From: Peptococcaceae bacterium UBA4068
GTDB taxonomy: Bacteria > Bacillota > Dehalobacteriia > UBA4068
DNA: 64,000 nt
Assembly (NCBI GenBank): GCA_002382665.1
Contig: DFZA01000009.1
Location: 294,495 to 358,494 of the forward strand
Direction of reading: 5' to 3'
The translations under genes and the position numbers were made by a program. Positions within the stretch are counted from its first letter, which is position 1; the number at the start of each line of letters is the position of its first letter. The notes under the pieces are model-generated. The model searched no databases, was not told where the DNA came from, and was given only the letters and a program-made list of their open reading frames with translations. This document shows, one piece after another, positions 10,342 through 39,748 of this stretch.

Positions 10342-10617
10342 TTATGAAGTACGTCGCACGTTGACAATAGGAATATTAGCCAGTAGTGCCACTCCGTCAA
10401 CTTCCCTGCTTAATGACACCTCAAGTGCGCTCGTGTCTATTTCCATATACTTACCAATCGTTGCGATCAAATCCTCGCGGAGGTTTTCCATAATACTTTC
10501 AGATATATCAAGGCGGTCATGAACCAGCACCAGACGTAACCGTTCTTTTGCTATGTTTTTGCTGCTTAACTCGTCATCCTTGCCAAAAAAGTGAGCGAGA
10601 AAGCTGACAATACTCAT
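10342..10617 (-). CDS. minE: cell division topological specificity factor MinE
   Basis: MSIVSFLAHFFGK...AKERLRLVLVHDR. ATG at 10617 is preceded by a GGGGG Shine-Dalgarno. The longer tracker ORF to 10641 lacks an RBS. Confidence 0.85.
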   Translation of the reverse strand: MSIVSFLAHFFGKDDELSSKNIAKERLRLVLVHDRLDISESIMENLREDLIATIGKYMEIDTSALEVSLSREVDGVALLANIPIVNVRRTS

Positions 10618-10630
10618 ATCTTTTCCCCCT

Positions 10631-11428
10631 TTATTCTCCACTGAATAAGCTCTTGAGACGACTAAAGAAACTGTTTTTCTTAGGCGTCAAAGTCATTAAC
10701 GGCACCTCTTCACCACAGAGGCGATGGGCAATATTGCGATACGCCTGTCCGGGTAACGACGCGTCATCCATGACTGTCGGTTCACCGCGATTGGTTGAGA
10801 TAATAATCGCATCATCATCAGGAACGATGCCGAGCAGCTCCACTGCCAGAATACTAAGTATATCGTCAACACTCATCATATCACCGGTTTGGACCATATT
10901 GGTACGAATACGGTTAATGATCAAGCGCGGCGAACGAACTTCGGCTGCTTCCAGTAAACCAATGATTCTGTCGGCGTCACGCACAGCAGATACTTCAGGC
11001 GTTGTAACAACGATTGCTTCTTCAGCGCCGGCTATAGCATTTCTGAAACCATGTTCAATACCGGCAGGGCAATCGATAATCACAAAGTCAAATTCATCTT
11101 TAAGCTTATCGCAAAGCTCAACCATCTGATCTTCAGTAACAGCCGTTTTATCCTTGGTTTGCGCCGCTGGTAACAGAAACATATTCTCAAAACGCTTATC
11201 CTTAATTAGCGCTTGGTTAAGACGGCAATTTCCGCGCACCGCATCGACTATATCATAAACGATACGGTTCTCCAACCCCAAAACAACATCAAGATTACGC
11301 AGGCCGATATCAGTATCAACCATTACAACTTTTTTATCAAACATGGCTAGTGCCGTACCTAAATTAGCAGTCGTGGTAGTTTTACCAACGCCGCCTTTAC
11401 CGGAAGTAATAACTATTACTTTTCCCAT
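10631..11428 (-). CDS. minD: septum site-determining ATPase MinD
   Basis: Deviant Walker A GKGGVGKTT. Start MGKVIVITSGKGG at 11428 is preceded by AAGGAGG. Confidence 0.9.
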   Translation of the reverse strand: MGKVIVITSGKGGVGKTTTTANLGTALAMFDKKVVMVDTDIGLRNLDVVLGLENRIVYDIVDAVRGNCRLNQALIKDKRFENMFLLPAAQTKDKTAVTEDQMVELCDKLKDEFDFVIIDCPAGIEHGFRNAIAGAEEAIVVTTPEVSAVRDADRIIGLLEAAEVRSPRLIINRIRTNMVQTGDMMSVDDILSILAVELLGIVPDDDAIIISTNRGEPTVMDDASLPGQAYRNIAHRLCGEEVPLMTLTPKKNSFFSRLKSLFSGE

Positions 11429-11464
11429 CTCGTGTCCTCCTTGCAAATGAGCTAATTCCGCCAA

Positions 11465-11842
11465 TTATTTGGGTGTGTTATATTCTTCGATAATTACTTC
11501 GTCATCTTTAATCCTTGCCGTCTCCGGTCGATAAGATCTGTCTTTACTACAGCCGTCGGGAGGACGGGTTATGTGGGTAGCGATCCTCAATTGTGTCGGT
11601 ATCAATTCCAACGCCGTTATGGTAGCATCCTCATTACCGGTAGAACCGGCATGTACAACTCCACGCAATGTACCCATAACAACTATATGACCTACTGCCG
11701 CAACCTCTGCCCCAGGGTTAACATCACCTAATACTACTACATTACCATCAGAATTAATACTCTGACCGGAACGCAGTGTATGGTTAACCATTGTTGTCGG
11801 CAGATTGGTTAATCTATCCGGCCATTCCATTAAAAAATTCAC
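11465..11842 (-). CDS. minC: septum site-determining protein MinC, short form with the C-terminal beta-helix domain only
   Basis: 125 aa with the C-terminal MinD-binding region (VVVLGDVNPGAEV...). Located upstream of minDE. Confidence 0.7.
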   Translation of the reverse strand: MNFLMEWPDRLTNLPTTMVNHTLRSGQSINSDGNVVVLGDVNPGAEVAAVGHIVVMGTLRGVVHAGSTGNEDATITALELIPTQLRIATHITRPPDGCSKDRSYRPETARIKDDEVIIEEYNTPK

Positions 11843-11966
11843 TCCTCATATTTATATCATAACAGTTAGTTTTCTATATCCAATATCTTTTTCCTGCCGA
11901 TTATCAGGCTTTAATGATATTTAAAATCTTATAGCAGCTATTCTTCATAAGATATAACTTATTACA

Positions 11967-12178
11967 GCTTCCGCTTCCGCTTCCGCTTCCGCTTCCGCTT
12001 CCGCCTCCGTCTCAGTCTCAGTCTCAGTCTTAGCCCCAGCCTCTACCTCAGTTCCAGCCTCCGCCTTAGCCCCAGCCTCTATCTCAGTTCCAGCCTCCGC
12101 CTTAGCCCCAGCCTCGATCCCAGCCTTAGACTCCGCGTACGTGGATGTTACTGTTGTTGCTGCTGTTGCTGTTCTGCG
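11967..12178. repeat. Tandem-repeat tract: (CTTCCG)x7, (CTCAGT)x3 and a 36-mer x2, running into the poly-Gln codons of mrdA
   Basis: Direct reading of the sequence. Lies between the mrdA stop (12148-12150) and the minC start. Confidence 0.9.
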
Positions 12179-14023: not shown

Positions 14024-14542
14024 CTAAAACTGGTTGTGAGTAGGTTGAACAAATACCAAATATACAAATAGAAAGATCAATGGTGCTGGAATTGCAATAT
14101 AAATAGACCGCGGTAAAACAATACAAAAGAAGCTATATAAAAAGGGTAAATTTAATCCAACCAGATACGAAAATAATATATAAACAAAACCGGATCCTAA
14201 TGAAGCTAAGAATACTGCAATCATCGGTAAGAGATAATTCTCTTTATAAAATTTACTTCCAATATAACTGGCCATTAAAGCCATAGCTGCCTTGGCAAGC
14301 AAAAATAACCCGATATATTTACCGATAAACAAGCCTTCGATTAAACCAATCCCGGCACCCACGGCCATAGCCGGGATTGGCCGCATATATAATGCGGTAA
14401 ATACCACAAAATAGGCTAATAAATCGGGCACAATACCGTTGATGGCAATTTTATGGATTAAGGTGTTCTGCCAAATTACTGCAACGATGAATAAAAAGAC
14501 CAGTAAGACGCGTTGCTTGACAGATAACATTTGATAATTCAT
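14024..14542 (-). CDS. mreD: rod shape-determining protein MreD
   Basis: 172 aa polytopic membrane protein downstream of mreC. Confidence 0.75.
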   Translation of the reverse strand: MNYQMLSVKQRVLLVFLFIVAVIWQNTLIHKIAINGIVPDLLAYFVVFTALYMRPIPAMAVGAGIGLIEGLFIGKYIGLFLLAKAAMALMASYIGSKFYKENYLLPMIAVFLASLGSGFVYILFSYLVGLNLPFLYSFFCIVLPRSIYIAIPAPLIFLFVYLVFVQPTHNQF

Positions 14543-14578: not shown

Positions 14579-15460
14579 TTAATCGTTTGCATCATTAGTT
14601 GACTCTTTGCCGCTATCTTTTGTGTCAATGTTAGCTCCGGAATTAAGTAATACCAGTACACTCTCGACTTTATTAAAGTCGACAAAAGGTATTATTTCCG
14701 CTTGCAGCGTCAGACTGCCGTTGCTTTTCTTAATCTTACCGATAGTACCAATTCGTAGACCAGGAGGATAATAACTTCCCAACCCTGAGCTGATAATAAT
14801 CTGGCCCTTGACGACTTTTGATTCGGCAGGGATATGAACCATTAATAATTTGTTACTGCGTCCGCCTTCAACAATACCGGCATCACGGGTAATTTCCGCA
14901 ATGGCGGCTACGGCGCTTTCCGCATCGGTAATCAATAACACTTCCGCAGTATTATCCGTAACTTGCCAAATCCTGCCAATCAAACCGTCGCCGCTGATCA
15001 CTGGCATTCCCACAGCAAAACCATCTTTACTGCCGCCGTCAATGGTAATAGTTTCATACCACCCTTGAGAGGAGCGGCCAATTACCGTAGCACCTTTCGG
15101 TTGCCAATCTTGAACAGTTTCGGCCATATTCAAAAGACCTCTAAGACGTTTGTTTTCCTGAGCAACCTCGGTCATATATGTATTTTTTGATTGAAGGTCG
15201 CCAACTTCTTCTTTTAGCTTTTCGTTTTCATCAACCAAACCATTCACGGCTGAAAAATATTTTGGTAACAGGGCAATTTTCTCGGAAAGAGTTAAAGTAG
15301 AGCTTTGCAGCGGCGATGCGCTCTCACGCAATATTTTCTCAACCAGAGAAAGACCGCCTCTACTCATTGACGTAGTAGCAGCTAAAATTAATGCGGCTGA
15401 GATTAACAAGATGATTATTAATATTCGGCCTTGAAATCTGAATCTTCGCAACTGCTTCAC
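14579..15460 (-). CDS. mreC: rod shape-determining protein MreC
   Basis: N-terminal TM helix, coiled coil, then beta domains (GLIGRI...). Position between mreB and mreD. Confidence 0.85.
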   Translation of the reverse strand: MKQLRRFRFQGRILIIILLISAALILAATTSMSRGGLSLVEKILRESASPLQSSTLTLSEKIALLPKYFSAVNGLVDENEKLKEEVGDLQSKNTYMTEVAQENKRLRGLLNMAETVQDWQPKGATVIGRSSQGWYETITIDGGSKDGFAVGMPVISGDGLIGRIWQVTDNTAEVLLITDAESAVAAIAEITRDAGIVEGGRSNKLLMVHIPAESKVVKGQIIISSGLGSYYPPGLRIGTIGKIKKSNGSLTLQAEIIPFVDFNKVESVLVLLNSGANIDTKDSGKESTNDAND

Positions 15461-15469
15461 CTATCCCCA

Positions 15470-16498
15470 CTAATAACGAGGTCTACCTAGACGCAATACT
15501 CTTTTGGTCGCCTCAAAATTTTCTAAAACTTTTCCGGTGCCCAATACTACGCTATTTAAAGGTTTCTCGGCATAATGAACGCACAAATCCGTTTCATCTG
15601 CTATTACTTTGTCTAGTCCATAGATCAACGAGCCGCCGCCGGTTAATATGATACCTCTGTCCATGATATCCGACATCAACTCCGGCGGTACTTTTTCCAA
15701 ACATGACTTGACCGCATCGATTATCTGTTCAGTTGTTTCCGATAAGGCTAAACAAATTTCCCGGGCGCTGATCACAGCGGTACGCGGCAAGCCATTGGTA
15801 GTATCGCGTCCACCGATCTCAATATGCTTATCGAGATAGTGGCTGTCCAGCTTGGCGCCGCCAATGTTTATTTTGATATCCTCAGCCGTCCTTTCGCCAA
15901 TATGCAAATTATAAGTCCGGCGAACATGGTTGATAATTGCCGTATCCATGGCATCGCCGGCAACACGGATTGACCGTAAGGCAACAACGCCACCCAAAGA
16001 AATAATAGCTACCTCTGTAGTACCGCCGCCGATATCAATGACCATATTGCCATGAGGCTCCATAACATCAATATTGGCTCCCAGAGCGGCCGCCATCGGT
16101 TCTTCGATCAAATAAGCTTCATGGGCGCCGGCGGAAAGTGTCGATTCTCTGACTGCTCGCTCTTCAACAGCAGTAACGCCAGAAGGGACACATACCACGG
16201 CGCGCACGCGTTTGAAAAAGCGGTTGCCGCCACTGGCTGTCTTGCTGATTACATACTTGATCATGCTTTGAGTATAATCATAGTTGGCGATAACACCTTC
16301 TTTTACCGGACGAATGGCACTAATGTTGCCAGGAGTTCGGCCAATCATGTGTTTTGCCTCTAAACCAACAGCCAATACGTTGCCGTTTTTACTATCAACC
16401 GCTATAACTGACGGTTCGTCTAAAACAATTCCTTTGCCTTTAAGATAAACCAATATATTAGCAGTTCCTAAATCGATGCCGATCTCTGTAGAAATCAT
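15470..16498 (-). CDS. mreB: rod shape-determining protein MreB
   Basis: Actin-fold motifs (IGIDLGTAN, DIGGGTTE). ATG at 16498 is preceded by GGAGGG. Confidence 0.9.
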   Translation of the reverse strand: MISTEIGIDLGTANILVYLKGKGIVLDEPSVIAVDSKNGNVLAVGLEAKHMIGRTPGNISAIRPVKEGVIANYDYTQSMIKYVISKTASGGNRFFKRVRAVVCVPSGVTAVEERAVRESTLSAGAHEAYLIEEPMAAALGANIDVMEPHGNMVIDIGGGTTEVAIISLGGVVALRSIRVAGDAMDTAIINHVRRTYNLHIGERTAEDIKINIGGAKLDSHYLDKHIEIGGRDTTNGLPRTAVISAREICLALSETTEQIIDAVKSCLEKVPPELMSDIMDRGIILTGGGSLIYGLDKVIADETDLCVHYAEKPLNSVVLGTGKVLENFEATKRVLRLGRPRY

Positions 16499-21614: not shown

Positions 21615-21736
21615 TTGTCTCCCCTCCTTAATATACTTTACTAGTCAAGGGGTAAAAAAATAACTTGTGCGACAATTGATATTAATATCTTCTTATTATA
21701 TAATCTTTTTGATAATATAATTATGAGGTTATAAAA

Positions 21737-33511: not shown

Positions 33512-34338
33512 TGAACCACCTCCCCCGGACTCTGTTCACAGCGAGCTTGATTAATATTTACATGACTAGCTTCCACCGGCTGATTATGATTGGCTTCAAT
33601 CTGCTGATTAAGATAGCCGATAGCTTCGCTTAAACCGCCGACCCTATCAATCAGACCACAATTAACGGCATTCTGGCCAACTACAATTGTACCGACATCA
33701 CGCGCCAACTCACCGGTTGTCATCATTAACTCTCTGAATTTATCAGCGCTGATATTAGAGTGACTGGTAACAAAACTGACCACTCGCTCTTGCATCCGTT
33801 CGAGATAATCAAAGCTCTGCTGCACTCCCACCACCATGCCGGTTAGTCTGATCGGATGAATTGTCATAGTGGCTGTAGGTGCAATAAACGACGTGTCGGC
33901 CGCTACCGCAATCGGCACACCGATGCTATGGCCGCCACCTAAAACCAATGACACTGTCGGTTTGGAAATAGAGGCGATAATTTCAGCTATCGCTAAACCG
34001 GCCTCAACATCGCCGCCGACGGTATTTAATATCACGATCAGGCCCTCAATATCGTGACATTGCTCAACAGCCACCAATTGGGGAATGATATGCTCGTATT
34101 TAGTCGCCTTATTCTGCGGCGGCATTACCAAATGACCCTCAACCTGTCCTATAATAGTAATAACATGGACATTACTTTTAAATTGAGGAAGGCTGAGTTG
34201 GCCAAAATCATTAAGCGCAGCTTCCTGATCTTTAGTTGGTTCGCTACCATCTTCAGGTGGAAATAACTCGGGATTGATCTCATTGCGTATAAATGCTGTT
34301 GCATTCAATAATGAAAAATTATATTTATCGATGGGCAA
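33508..34338 (-). CDS. tepA: ClpP-fold serine protease, TepA/SDH family
   Basis: ClpP/crotonase fold region ([15 protein letters not shown]). Downstream of rnj as ymfB/tepA. Confidence 0.7.
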
Positions 34339-36876: not shown

Positions 36877-38739
36877 CTATTTAACATACTTGATCATATT
36901 CGCATATTCAGCACTCAGATCAATAGCATCCATGCCTTCCTTTGTGGGCACGCCATCTGGCGTGCAGCCACGCATCTCATAGTATTTATCAAGCATTTCA
37001 TTAAATTTATCTTTATCTAAAAATTGGCCTTCGGCTTCGCCGCCAGCAATCGGATCATTGAAATGGCGTTCAGGTAAATCATCATTTATACGTCTTAAGC
37101 CTTCACGAACGTTAAACATACGTGCCAGCATAGTAACGCGTGCGCCACACTCCATGTATGATTCTTTAGTATAGCCGATACCGGTAATAGCGTTGACCAT
37201 ATTGGTTGTCATATCCTCGCCATAAACACCGAGGAATGCCGGGAAGTTGCAAGTGCCGGCGCAATCGGCAACCGCCGTACCATAATTCTGGGTATAGATA
37301 GTCATTTCCGGTTTACCCTCATAAGAGAAACGGTCGCACATACCAAAGTTTTCCGGAGGAGTATAACATTTATTATGGTCGCCGCCGGTAAAGCAAGTAG
37401 CCATCGACAGAGCCATAGATTTCATGCCTCTGACATCATATGCGGCATGCTCAAGACCCTTACTTTGAATAGCGAAATATTCGCTGCCCTTACCTACCTT
37501 TTTGGAGGCAATCTTAACACCGTCAGTCAGTAAAGCGCCAAGACCTTCCTTATAGGCTATGTCATGGATTAACTGTATTAAAGCATCGGCATTACCAAAG
37601 TGTAAATCCAGGCCAAATGTATCTTCTTTGGTGAAGATGCCTTTTTCATAGCATTCCATTGCCCAGCCAATTGATACACCTGTAGACACTGTATCAAGTC
37701 CCAGCTCATCGCAAAGTCTGTCGGCGGCAATCTGAGCACCGATATCTTTGTTACCGACTTCTCCGCCCAAAGCAAACATCGATTCATATTCAACAACAGA
37801 CATCGCACCGGCATATTTGCCGTTTTTGACTAATTTTAATTGCGCACAAGTCATCGGGCAACGATAACAACCTTCTTTACCGACATTGAGTTCGGAATGG
37901 GGTTTTTCTCCGACATAATCGACATAATCAGGAATACCGCTGGTCTGCCAGTTTTTAGAAGGATAGACGCCGCGTACCTGATAACCGTCTGAGCCCACCA
38001 ATGTACCTGAAGCTTTAAAACCTTGACAGAACGGATTTTCTGAGAAAGTTTTAACTGTTTGTTTGACCAAATCATTAAAAGTCTCGGGATCAGCAACTTC
38101 TACTTCCTGTTTATTGGCTGCATGAAGCGCAACGCCTTTCAAGTTTTTGGAACCCATTACGGCACCGAAACCACGACGGGCAAATGCACGCATCATATCA
38201 TCACAAAAAACTCCCGCCAAATTACTTAAATTTTCACCGGCTGGGCCAATTACAGCTGATTTAATATCTTCATCATGAAGTTCTTGTTTCATTAAACGCA
38301 TTGCATCCGGTGTTTTGCTACCCCAAATAACAGCAGCAGGCTTAAACTGGACTTTGCCATCTTTAATATACAGATATGTAGGTTCTTCAGCTTTGCCTTC
38401 GATTATGATCATATCATAACCAAGCATTTTGAGTTCTGTCGGGAAATAACCGCCGGCAGTTGCAACACCAATGGTACCGGTAGCAGGAGACTTACTGGTC
38501 AGTGAGCAGCGGGATGAATAAATAGCTTTTGATCCGGTAATCGGACCGACTGCAAAAATTAGCTTATTTTCCGGACCAAGCGGATCAATACCCGGTTCTA
38601 ATTCATCATACAGATACTTAATTGCCAAGCCACCGCTACCGATGAATTTTACAAAATATTCATCAGGTATTACTTCTTCACGGTAGCTCTTGTCCGACAG
38701 ATTGATACGTAGCAGCTTACATTTAACTCCTTTTAACAT
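36877..38739 (-). CDS. tungsten-type aldehyde:ferredoxin oxidoreductase
   Basis: AOR N-terminal and alpha domains. Probable start MLKGVKCKLLRINLS is preceded by GGGAGGG. The tracker ORF extends to 38841. Confidence 0.85.
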   Translation of the reverse strand: MLKGVKCKLLRINLSDKSYREEVIPDEYFVKFIGSGGLAIKYLYDELEPGIDPLGPENKLIFAVGPITGSKAIYSSRCSLTSKSPATGTIGVATAGGYFPTELKMLGYDMIIIEGKAEEPTYLYIKDGKVQFKPAAVIWGSKTPDAMRLMKQELHDEDIKSAVIGPAGENLSNLAGVFCDDMMRAFARRGFGAVMGSKNLKGVALHAANKQEVEVADPETFNDLVKQTVKTFSENPFCQGFKASGTLVGSDGYQVRGVYPSKNWQTSGIPDYVDYVGEKPHSELNVGKEGCYRCPMTCAQLKLVKNGKYAGAMSVVEYESMFALGGEVGNKDIGAQIAADRLCDELGLDTVSTGVSIGWAMECYEKGIFTKEDTFGLDLHFGNADALIQLIHDIAYKEGLGALLTDGVKIASKKVGKGSEYFAIQSKGLEHAAYDVRGMKSMALSMATCFTGGDHNKCYTPPENFGMCDRFSYEGKPEMTIYTQNYGTAVADCAGTCNFPAFLGVYGEDMTTNMVNAITGIGYTKESYMECGARVTMLARMFNVREGLRRINDDLPERHFNDPIAGGEAEGQFLDKDKFNEMLDKYYEMRGCTPDGVPTKEGMDAIDLSAEYANMIKYVK

Positions 38740-38888
38740 TAAAAAATTCCCTCCCTGCATATTTTTGTTTAACAAATAGGATATATCCACATAACCAATA
38801 CTATTAAATGGTATTGTTACTAAATGGCAGTCTAATAACAAATCATATGCAGATATACCCTATTCATAAACTTTATAATTAATTATAT

Positions 38889-38972
38889 ATTACCAGAAAA
38901 GATTGTGTTTTACCACAAAAATTTTTGTTTTACCACAAAATATTTTTGTTTTACCAGAAAATGTTGGGTAAT
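38889..38972. promoter_or_regulatory. Four tandem approximately 21 bp direct repeats (TTACCAsAAAAnnTTTTTGTT-like) upstream of the AOR gene
   Basis: Units at 38891, 38911, 38931 and 38952, phased at two helical turns. The last unit overlaps the ecfT stop codon. Confidence 0.6.
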
Positions 38973-39748
38973 CTAACATCCAGAATGACAAAGAAGTAAG
39001 TGAACACAGCCATACCGATTGCAATAATAGCTATGGCAATCCAATCTCTTGAATGCATTGAAAAGTCGCTGTAATATGTTCTATTCTCAACAGATGCACC
39101 AAAAGCACGTGTTTCCAGAGCATTCGACATATTATCACTATTACGCAAACCTGCAATCAGCATTGCAGTCAAAATTGGCATGTAAGATTTAAGCTTTTTC
39201 AAAATGTTCTTTTTGGGGATATCAAGACCACGAGCATATTGGGCTTCGGTTACCATGGTGATGATTCCGAAAAAGACAGGCAGATAACGCAAGGCGATAG
39301 CAAGAGTTAAACCGTATTTGTAAGGCATGCCCAATTTGACGCAAGCTCTGACGATCTTTGCCTGGTCAGTAGCAAACAGCAGAGAGCAGCATGCAAAGCA
39401 CAATGAAATGATTCTGAACGCCATAGCGACACCGTCAATAAGGCCACCTAAAGTGATGGGCAGCGGCCCAACATAGAAGAAACACGGTCCGCTATGATAA
39501 AAAAATGGCCACAAAATAACAATCATTATCGTTACCGGCACAGTCAGTTTAAAGACCCACTGAAAACGGTTGGCAGGAATCTGAGCAGAAGCTAACATTA
39601 GCAGCATGCCAACTAAAAGAAATAAATTGAGCCAAAAATCTCTGACTAACATCGCTGCAACCATCAAAACTACGGCAAGCACGAGCTTAACCCGCGGATC
39701 CAAGCGATGCATCCATGAATCTCTTTTAACATAAAAGTCTAAAGTCAT
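38951..39748 (-). CDS. ecfT: ECF transporter transmembrane (T) component
   Basis: CbiQ-family TM protein, downstream of two ECF ATPase genes. Confidence 0.85.
   Translation of the reverse strand: MTLDFYVKRDSWMHRLDPRVKLVLAVVLMVAAMLVRDFWLNLFLLVGMLLMLASAQIPANRFQWVFKLTVPVTIMIVILWPFFYHSGPCFFYVGPLPITLGGLIDGVAMAFRIISLCFACCSLLFATDQAKIVRACVKLGMPYKYGLTLAIALRYLPVFFGIITMVTEAQYARGLDIPKKNILKKLKSYMPILTAMLIAGLRNSDNMSNALETRAFGASVENRTYYSDFSMHSRDWIAIAIIAIGMAVFTYFFVILDVRLPNIFW

Follow-up and report, generated by a model that had tools for sequence, protein, structure and literature searches.

In the survey of H. influenzae repeats, hexanucleotide SSRs, the units of which keep the reading frame, show no association with phase variation (PMC2651432), while in other bacteria intergenic SSRs are able to control expression via the promoter or the 5′ UTR (PMC12721329). 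The MIRUs, to the extent that the sources describe them, form a dispersed family of about 40–50 loci with units of 40–100 bp (Supply et al. 1997, in PMC3184786), and carry small ORFs that overlap the adjacent genes at their stop and start codons (PMC3184786). At the protein level, disordered extracytoplasmic tails of PBPs are known, such as the IDR of B. subtilis PBP1 (PMC9732909).

Here, we consider a repeat tract between mrdA, which codes for PBP2, and minC in a 64-kb stretch of DNA (hereinafter the window, meaning that entire stretch) from an uncultured lineage, to which Dehalobacterium and Formimonas are the closest named genera. With bacterial SSRs and VNTRs (PMC2651432) it shares short head-to-tail units, lineage-variable length, a probable origin by slippage and the lack of a frame switch. 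It differs from the usual bacterial hexamer SSR in its unusual length, with 28 units and a 36-nt higher-order structure, in abutting a poly-Q repeat that spans a stop codon, and in its location within a cell-shape/division operon. Like the contingency loci of Haemophilus, Neisseria and Campylobacter (PMC5084427, PMC12721329), it is a gene-adjacent repeat of a hypermutable type with length polymorphism between lineages; unlike them, it lies outside any ORF, −35/−10 spacer or 5′ UTR, has a unit that is a multiple of 3, and is flanked by housekeeping rather than surface-variation genes; no within-organism variation is seen in the consensus assemblies. It resembles the mycobacterial MIRUs, as far as PMC3184786 characterizes them, in its intercistronic tandem units some tens of nucleotides long, variable copy number and a frame open through the repeat; unlike the MIRUs of that account, it consists of hexamers and has neither a start codon nor an overlap with the flanking genes, and the 64-kb window contains it only once. 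Finally, the virtual peptide read through it would be an acidic low-complexity extracytoplasmic PBP tail comparable to the PBP1 IDR (PMC9732909); in contrast to that IDR, the tract is out of frame and lies behind one to three stops in a varying phase, and the real tail is a short poly-Q stretch. We posit that the tract is most likely a lineage-specific, non-coding intergenic hexanucleotide VNTR, (GARRCN)n, that arose in the mrdA–minC spacer by replication slippage.

The mre–mrdA–min locus and the C-terminus of PBP2

The features of the locus are collected in Table 1. PBP2 matches the NCBIfam equivalog model TIGR03423 (pbp2_mrdA) with 533.9 bits against a cut-off of 455, residues 8–609 aligning with profile positions 2–592 of 593, and contains the Pfam domains PBP_dimer and Transpeptidase. 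Since the mrdA model is matched end to end, the protein is complete, with nothing missing; beyond the modelled part there are only nine residues, AEQQQQQQQ. PBP2 ends ...AYFGAEQQQQQQQ, and the TAA at 12150–12148 confirms the first-pass annotation's statement that PBP2 ends in poly-Q followed by a stop.

Downstream, the start of minC is the ATG at 11830 both in the gene calls and in the relatives, with a GTG further upstream at 11842. An earlier figure of 125 nt between the tract and minC holds for this GTG, the distance from the end of the hexamers to the ATG being 137 nt. MinC is also short in related loci, with 118–124 aa (L006 4976–5344, L008 2262–2627, L011 4575–4949, L012 4497–4853 and L013 4811–5185). 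The N-terminal FtsZ-inhibiting domain of MinC is absent not only in the window organism but also in the related loci studied, that of Dehalobacterium formicoaceticum among them; the short MinC keeps the C-terminal MinD-binding domain alone, and its mode of division inhibition is not obvious. The tract is not considered a relic of a lost N-terminal domain or linker of MinC, since the short MinC is also found in relatives without a tract.

Table 1. Features of the mreC–minE region; positions are those of the window
Feature	Position	Strand	Basis or remark
mreC	14579-15460	minus	
mreD	14024-14542	minus	
PBP2 / mrdA, class-B PBP, 618 aa	12148-14004	minus	ORF
CAG/CAA poly-Q repeat ending in the TAA stop	12148-12173	minus	TRF period 6 and 9 at 12146-12173
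Short unique linker CATCCACGTACGCG, from stop to hexamer array	12134-12147	minus	
Uninterrupted array of 28 hexamers, consensus GARRCN	11966-12133	minus	hexamer parse; TRF period 6
Higher-order 36-nt unit (6 hexamers) x3.4	12003-12123	minus	TRF, 87% matches, score 172
Sub-array AAGACT-GAGACT-GAGACT-GAGACG	12008-12031	minus	hexamer parse
Sub-array GAGGCG-(GAAGCG)5-GAAGCT	11966-12007	minus	TRF and hexamer parse
TGA closing the virtual E/A frame (…AVISYIL*)	11945-11947	minus	phase differs in L008
Conserved non-repetitive block upstream of minC	11831-11950	minus	alignment of window, L010, L008 and L006
minC, 121 aa, C-terminal domain only	11465-11830	minus	Pfam MinC_C 4.8e-34; TIGR01222 positions 120-224 of 226
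minD	10631-11464	minus	
minE	10342-10641	minus	

Anatomy of the hexamer array

The 36-mer, GAGACT and GAAGCG repeats that the first-pass annotation listed separately behind mrdA are all real as judged by TRF; however, they are better described as a single degenerate GARRCN microsatellite, whose 28 hexamers are all in phase without any indels. Read from 12133, hexamers 1–9 are GAGTCT AAGGCT GGGATC, GAGGCT GGGGCT AAGGCG GAGGCT GGAACT GAGATA; hexamers 10–15 repeat the 36-nt block GAGGCT GGGGCT AAGGCG GAGGCT GGAACT with GAGGTA as the last unit, and hexamers 16–28 are GAGGCT GGGGCT AAGACT GAGACT GAGACT GAGACG GAGGCG (GAAGCG)5 GAAGCT. Among the 27 hexamers tabulated by position (the 28th, GAAGCT, stands in phase behind them and is not counted), G occupies position 1 in 23, A occupies position 2 in 21 and C occupies position 5 in 24. 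T is confined to position 6 of the hexamer bar four exceptions. The sense strand is 73% purine, with 79 G versus 27 C and four GGAGG motifs, and reaches a G4Hunter maximum of 1.36 (25-nt window), which is borderline.

TRF reports (GCTTCC)7.2 at 11967–12009 (97% matches, score 79) and a period-6 array of 18.8 copies at 12003–12115. Within the latter, a 33-nt sequence occurs in two exact copies (12047–12079 and 12083–12115), for which the chance expectation is 0 matches. The nearly perfect, minC-proximal GAAGCG sub-array is presumably the youngest part. As had been anticipated from the letters alone, a change in the number of GAAGCG repeats stays in frame, the units being 6 and 36 nt. These are the strongest tandem repeats that TRF detects in the 64-kb window, and no second copy of them is found elsewhere in it. 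A DGR, a CRISPR array and a MITE were rejected as candidates: the units are contiguous without spacers, and there are neither inverted repeats nor a second copy in the 64-kb window.

Two further tandem repeats of the window are weak, namely a 16-mer x2.8 at 21676–21721 (score 50) and a 24-mer x2.3 at 33562–33617 (score 59). In addition, a direct repeat of 20–21 nt, TTACCA(C/G)AAAA..TTTTGTT, is present in about 3.6–4 copies at 38890–38962 (TRF score 104). It begins in the spacer upstream of the minus-strand ORF 36877–38841, and its last copy enters the 3′ end of the minus-strand ORF 38951–39748; it could be a candidate set of regulator binding sites.

Why the Glu/Ala-rich frame is open

The first-pass annotation had also drawn attention to a −1 frame that is open through the tract as a tail rich in E, A, G, K and T. 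We recover the same peptide, ...STYAESKAGIEAGAKAEAGTEIEAGAKAEAGTEVEAGAKTETETETEAEAEAEAEAEAEAVISYIL*, in the frame one base upstream of that of PBP2, which is open from within the mrdA 3′ end to 11948 (hereinafter the E/A frame). It had been noted that this frame lacks a start codon, and indeed, across all six frames, the tract is covered by no ORF of at least 20 aa that begins with ATG, GTG or TTG. The virtual frame stops 115 nt short of the minC ATG, with three further stops in between. A Pfam search with the virtual peptides returned nothing above cut-off, the only matches being low-complexity ones to PARP (16 bits, with the cut-off at 100) and Pilosulin (13.5, with the cut-off at 25).

The openness of this frame is automatic, as the length of every unit is divisible by 3 and T hardly occurs outside position 6 of the hexamer. 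Upon random reordering of the hexamers, the E/A frame stays open in 5000 of 5000 trials, as against dinucleotide-preserving shuffles of the same 200 nt, where any open frame is obtained in only 2.8%. With T in one phase and units that are multiples of 3, a GAR-GCN frame gains stops by transversion only. Single transitions instead convert GAG to AAG (K), GGG (G) or GAA (E), and GCN to ACN (T), GTN (V) or GCN (A); the two Ile codons of the virtual frame (ATA and ATC) each need a second change. No coding constraint needs to be invoked: the decay of a (GAGGCN)n array accounts for the open frame and its composition alike.

Agreement between independent assemblies

Five contigs carry the exact PBP2 sequence, and three of them (L003, L004 and L005) were examined. 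L004 (JGI 3300002446) equals the window at all bases of 7857 nt. L005 (Logan SRR636597) equals it over 4919 nt and covers only the start of the tract, ending within the first 36-mer; such a break is expected where a 33-nt exact repeat exceeds the assembler k-mer, and it is uninformative on heterogeneity. L003 (JGI 3300000032) departs from the window only by four single-T indels, of which three fall in the mreB region and the fourth at the margin of the stretch compared; its stop and whole tract are identical. Its private single-T insertions mark it as an assembly independent of that of the window. At L003 504–1535 (window about 15880–16145), mreB is broken into three ORFs by such insertions, which are seen neither in the window nor in L004 and L005 and are homopolymer-type assembly errors.

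As the independent assemblies agree and the PBP2/tract junction (CAACAACAGTAACATCC) contains no homopolymer, a sequencing frameshift is unlikely. No length variation is observed among the assemblies of the window organism, all of them consensus assemblies that hide minor variants; this lack of within-species variation is weak evidence, as the assemblies may stem from related enrichment cultures.

Comparison across related lineages

In a protein search of a 5.8-billion-cluster set, the only close relatives among the matches listed were P0001–P0003; the PBP2 of P0002 (89% identical) ends in ...QTQQQTQGQQQ and that of P0003 (88% identical) in ...QEQQQQQQQQQQ. A fourth lineage, L010, was found by a metagenome contig scan with MinC alignment and is compared in Table 2 with the window and the loci of P0002 and P0003. 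An exact-pattern scan of metagenome contigs with the downstream flank gave no matches, and a genome contig scan with the full-length PBP2, which was swamped by poly-Q, gave just L001 and L002, both 30% identical and proteobacterial.

Table 2. The mrdA end and the downstream tract in four related lineages
Lineage	End of mrdA	Hexamer tract	E/A frame relative to PBP2
Window	poly-Q x7, TAA	28 hexamers	+2
L010	poly-Q x18, (CAGTAA)x3	about 11 hexamers	+1
L008	Q-rich variant end, TAATAG	about 21 hexamers, GAAGCG/GAAGCA, 42-nt higher order	+2
L006 / L007	poly-Q x10, TAA	no tract	not applicable

Across these lineages (Table 2), the stop stands directly behind the poly-Q in four of four, and the tract ranges from 0 to 168 nt in an otherwise conserved operon. 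The poly-Q codons lie at about 368–460 in L010 and at about 4840–4866 in L006. In L006/L007, the distance from stop to minC is just 109 nt. L010 is close to the window, with MinC 98%, minC 97% (nucleotide) and the mrdA 3′ end 93% (nucleotide) identical, and the triplication of its stop-bearing CAGTAA unit indicates that slippage copied the stop codon itself. Its linker contains two single-base indels, to which the change in the phase of the E/A frame is due; this is a 2.8x-coverage, partly chimeric contig. Positions 1–170 of this 1176-nt sediment contig are GC-rich, tRNA-like by eye and abruptly joined to mid-mrdA, so that its start is probably an assembly chimera and single-base details are to be taken with care. 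In L008, a single Logan contig whose single-base indels call for the same care, a TAAGCA hexamer places an in-frame TAA inside the array, and the E/A frame exits the array in a different phase relative to the conserved downstream flank.

The more distant relatives L011, L012 (Dehalobacterium formicoaceticum, CP022121) and L013, whose PBP2 is 51–55% identical, keep the order mreBCD–PBP2–minCDE with spacers of 103–300 nt, in none of which is a hexamer tract found. At its C-terminus, their PBP2 carries a conserved ...EPxPDxLPxxME* motif, in some cases together with a low-complexity insert in frame.

Two means of translating past the stop were considered and discarded. For programmed −1 frameshifting or stop read-through, no slippery heptamer is present at CAACAACAGTAAC. 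Moreover, simple read-through would bring the PBP2 frame to a TAG after 22 codons, and it would have to pass two stops in L008 and three in L010.

The minC upstream region and transcription

Between the tract and minC lies a conserved block with the elements CCTGATAATCGGCAGG (11908–11893), TTGGAT-N16-TATGAT (11883–11856), TGATATAAA (11859–11851) and AGGAG (11846–11842). In the window, L010 and L008, conservation of the flank spans about 11950 to minC, and in L006 it sets in at CCTGATRATYGGCAGG; this motif and the promoter-like elements are thus common to all four related lineages. The TTGGAT-N16-TATGAT, TGATATAAA and AGGAG elements are read as a probable internal promoter and ribosome-binding site, and their conservation suggests that minCDE may have its own promoter inside the mre–mrdA–min cluster. 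A strict sigma-70 promoter scan of the mrdA–minC interval gave no match.

No intrinsic terminator was detected on the minus strand from mrdA to minC, the single match of the scan being a weak plus-strand hairpin at 12132–12145. Because no terminator is visible, the tract is probably carried in an mreBCD–mrdA–minCDE read-through message. Neither a structured RNA nor a terminator is apparent in the tract: Rfam gives 0 matches at E<=1, and folding is not beyond that of shuffles, the z values of the tract (−0.84) and of the downstream block (+0.57) both being unremarkable.

Weighing the alternatives

The first-pass annotation offered as one possibility that the E/A frame is a natural low-complexity tail of PBP2 truncated by a frameshift, either biological or due to sequencing. 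We consider it very unlikely that such a tail was lost to a recent frameshift, or to an error of sequencing, in or near the poly-Q codons. The frame is indeed open from the mrdA 3′ end to 11948, some distant homologs have in-frame acidic low-complexity tails (e.g., P0030, ...EEEAKAEEATGGQTNHGTETTT...) and disordered PBP tails are known elsewhere, as in B. subtilis PBP1 (PMC9732909). However, independent assemblies are identical at the stop and the tract, with no homopolymer at the junction; all four lineages stop behind the poly-Q, with double stops in L008 and triple stops in L010; the tract does not continue the frame of the PBP ORF, its relation to that frame varies among orthologs, a TAA interrupts it in L008 and L006 lacks it; the mrdA model is fully covered without it; and no fused PBP2–EA variant is found among the matches listed in the 5.8-billion-cluster search. 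The comparison with relatives, which had been set beforehand as the test of this idea, returned the same stop position and a downstream tract that behaves as non-coding, on which the tail reading fails, and the coding signature attributed to the tract is a by-product of its period-6 structure, as seen in the hexamer reorderings. On our reading, translation of PBP2 ends ahead of the tract. That it might encode a separate small E/A-rich peptide can scarcely be credited: a gene caller predicts a 56-aa GTG-start ORF over the L008 array, but the window tract is without an ATG, GTG or TTG start, the N-terminus, C-terminus and length vary among lineages, no Pfam match rises above cut-off and the frame is open by construction. 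The absence of a start codon and the end of the frame ahead of minC also set the tract apart from the ORF overlap that PMC3184786 describes for the MIRUs. We regard as unlikely, though less so, that a now non-coding array was seeded from a once-coding, ancestral Glu/Ala-rich tail of PBP2 or from the GCAGAA or CAG-CAA hexamers of the mrdA 3′ end and was stranded by a CAA-to-TAA change, a proposal that concerns the history of the array and not its present function. It draws on the location of the stop inside a CAG/CAA array, with the CAGTAA x3 of L010 attesting slippage across the stop, on the GCAGAA (Ala-Glu) preceding the poly-Q, which is a circular permutation of the L008 GAAGCA unit, and on the replacement in this clade of the usual ...EPxPDxLPxxME tail of the family. 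Against it, the array is in phase with PBP2 in no lineage, the tract is without sequence homology to the tails of relatives, and L006 has a poly-Q ending without an array; moreover, any short seed can yield hexamer arrays.

The remaining alternatives attribute a function to the tract. It was suggested to be a slipped-strand contingency locus, of which the variation in length between lineages stands. The placement does not suit a switch, as the units of 6 and 36 nt are multiples of 3 and the tract lies behind the mrdA stop, outside the ORF, and ends about 83 nt upstream of the putative minC −35, outside the putative promoter. Among the consensus assemblies of this organism, its length does not vary. 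A functional, length-tunable cis element that modulates minCDE expression or mrdA–minC read-through, whether via minC promoter spacing, via a purine-rich RNA that lacks structure and repeats the GGAGG motif, or via a Rho-loading antisense RNA rich in C and poor in G, seems to us quite improbable. It would be in keeping with the retention by three of four lineages of the tract, or at least of a GARGCN array, in one and the same place though at very different lengths, with the proximity of the tract to the putative minC −35 in a probable read-through transcript, with the strong strand asymmetry and the four GGAGG motifs, and with the control of expression by intergenic SSRs in other bacteria (PMC12721329). 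Yet, the tract is outside the −35/−10 spacer and the 5′ UTR, which are the sites of known SSR switches; it is absent in L006 and in all the more distant relatives with the same operon and short minC; its length does not vary among assemblies of this organism; its RNA structure is not unusual and its G4Hunter score is only borderline; and hexanucleotide SSRs were unlinked to phase variation in the H. influenzae survey (PMC2651432). Slightly more doubtful still is a selected intercistronic element that would set the coupling of Min and elongasome by repeat number, for which the route might be the read-through or stability of the mrdA–minC message or an antisense block by a C-rich antisense RNA; lineages would in that case tune their control of cell division through the number of repeats.

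The intergenic VNTR reading, which corresponds to the pure 3′ UTR repeat listed last in the first-pass annotation, is the one that the evidence favors: the copies are short and contiguous, their number varies between lineages with conserved flanks, and they lie outside coding sequence. We propose that a GAGGCN/GAAGCG seed would have expanded through replication slippage, with the older copies decaying chiefly by transitions; blocks of six hexamers may then have been duplicated again, and the GAAGCG run would have grown most recently. The tract adjoins a second repeat that is prone to slippage, namely the CAG/CAA poly-Q codons spanning the stop. The tract itself is probably near-neutral, with its length apparently under little or no constraint.

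Implications

For the annotation of PBP2 in this lineage, neither a re-annotation of the tail nor a frameshift flag is warranted. If the tract did tune minCDE expression, it would represent an unusual control of a housekeeping division system by repeat number, though nothing here points that way. The tract is a break point of short-read assemblies, as illustrated by L005, which ends inside it. More generally, a period-6 microsatellite can by itself give rise to a long Glu/Ala-rich frame free of stops behind a gene. For the uncultured lineage itself, the tract offers a possible VNTR marker for strain typing.
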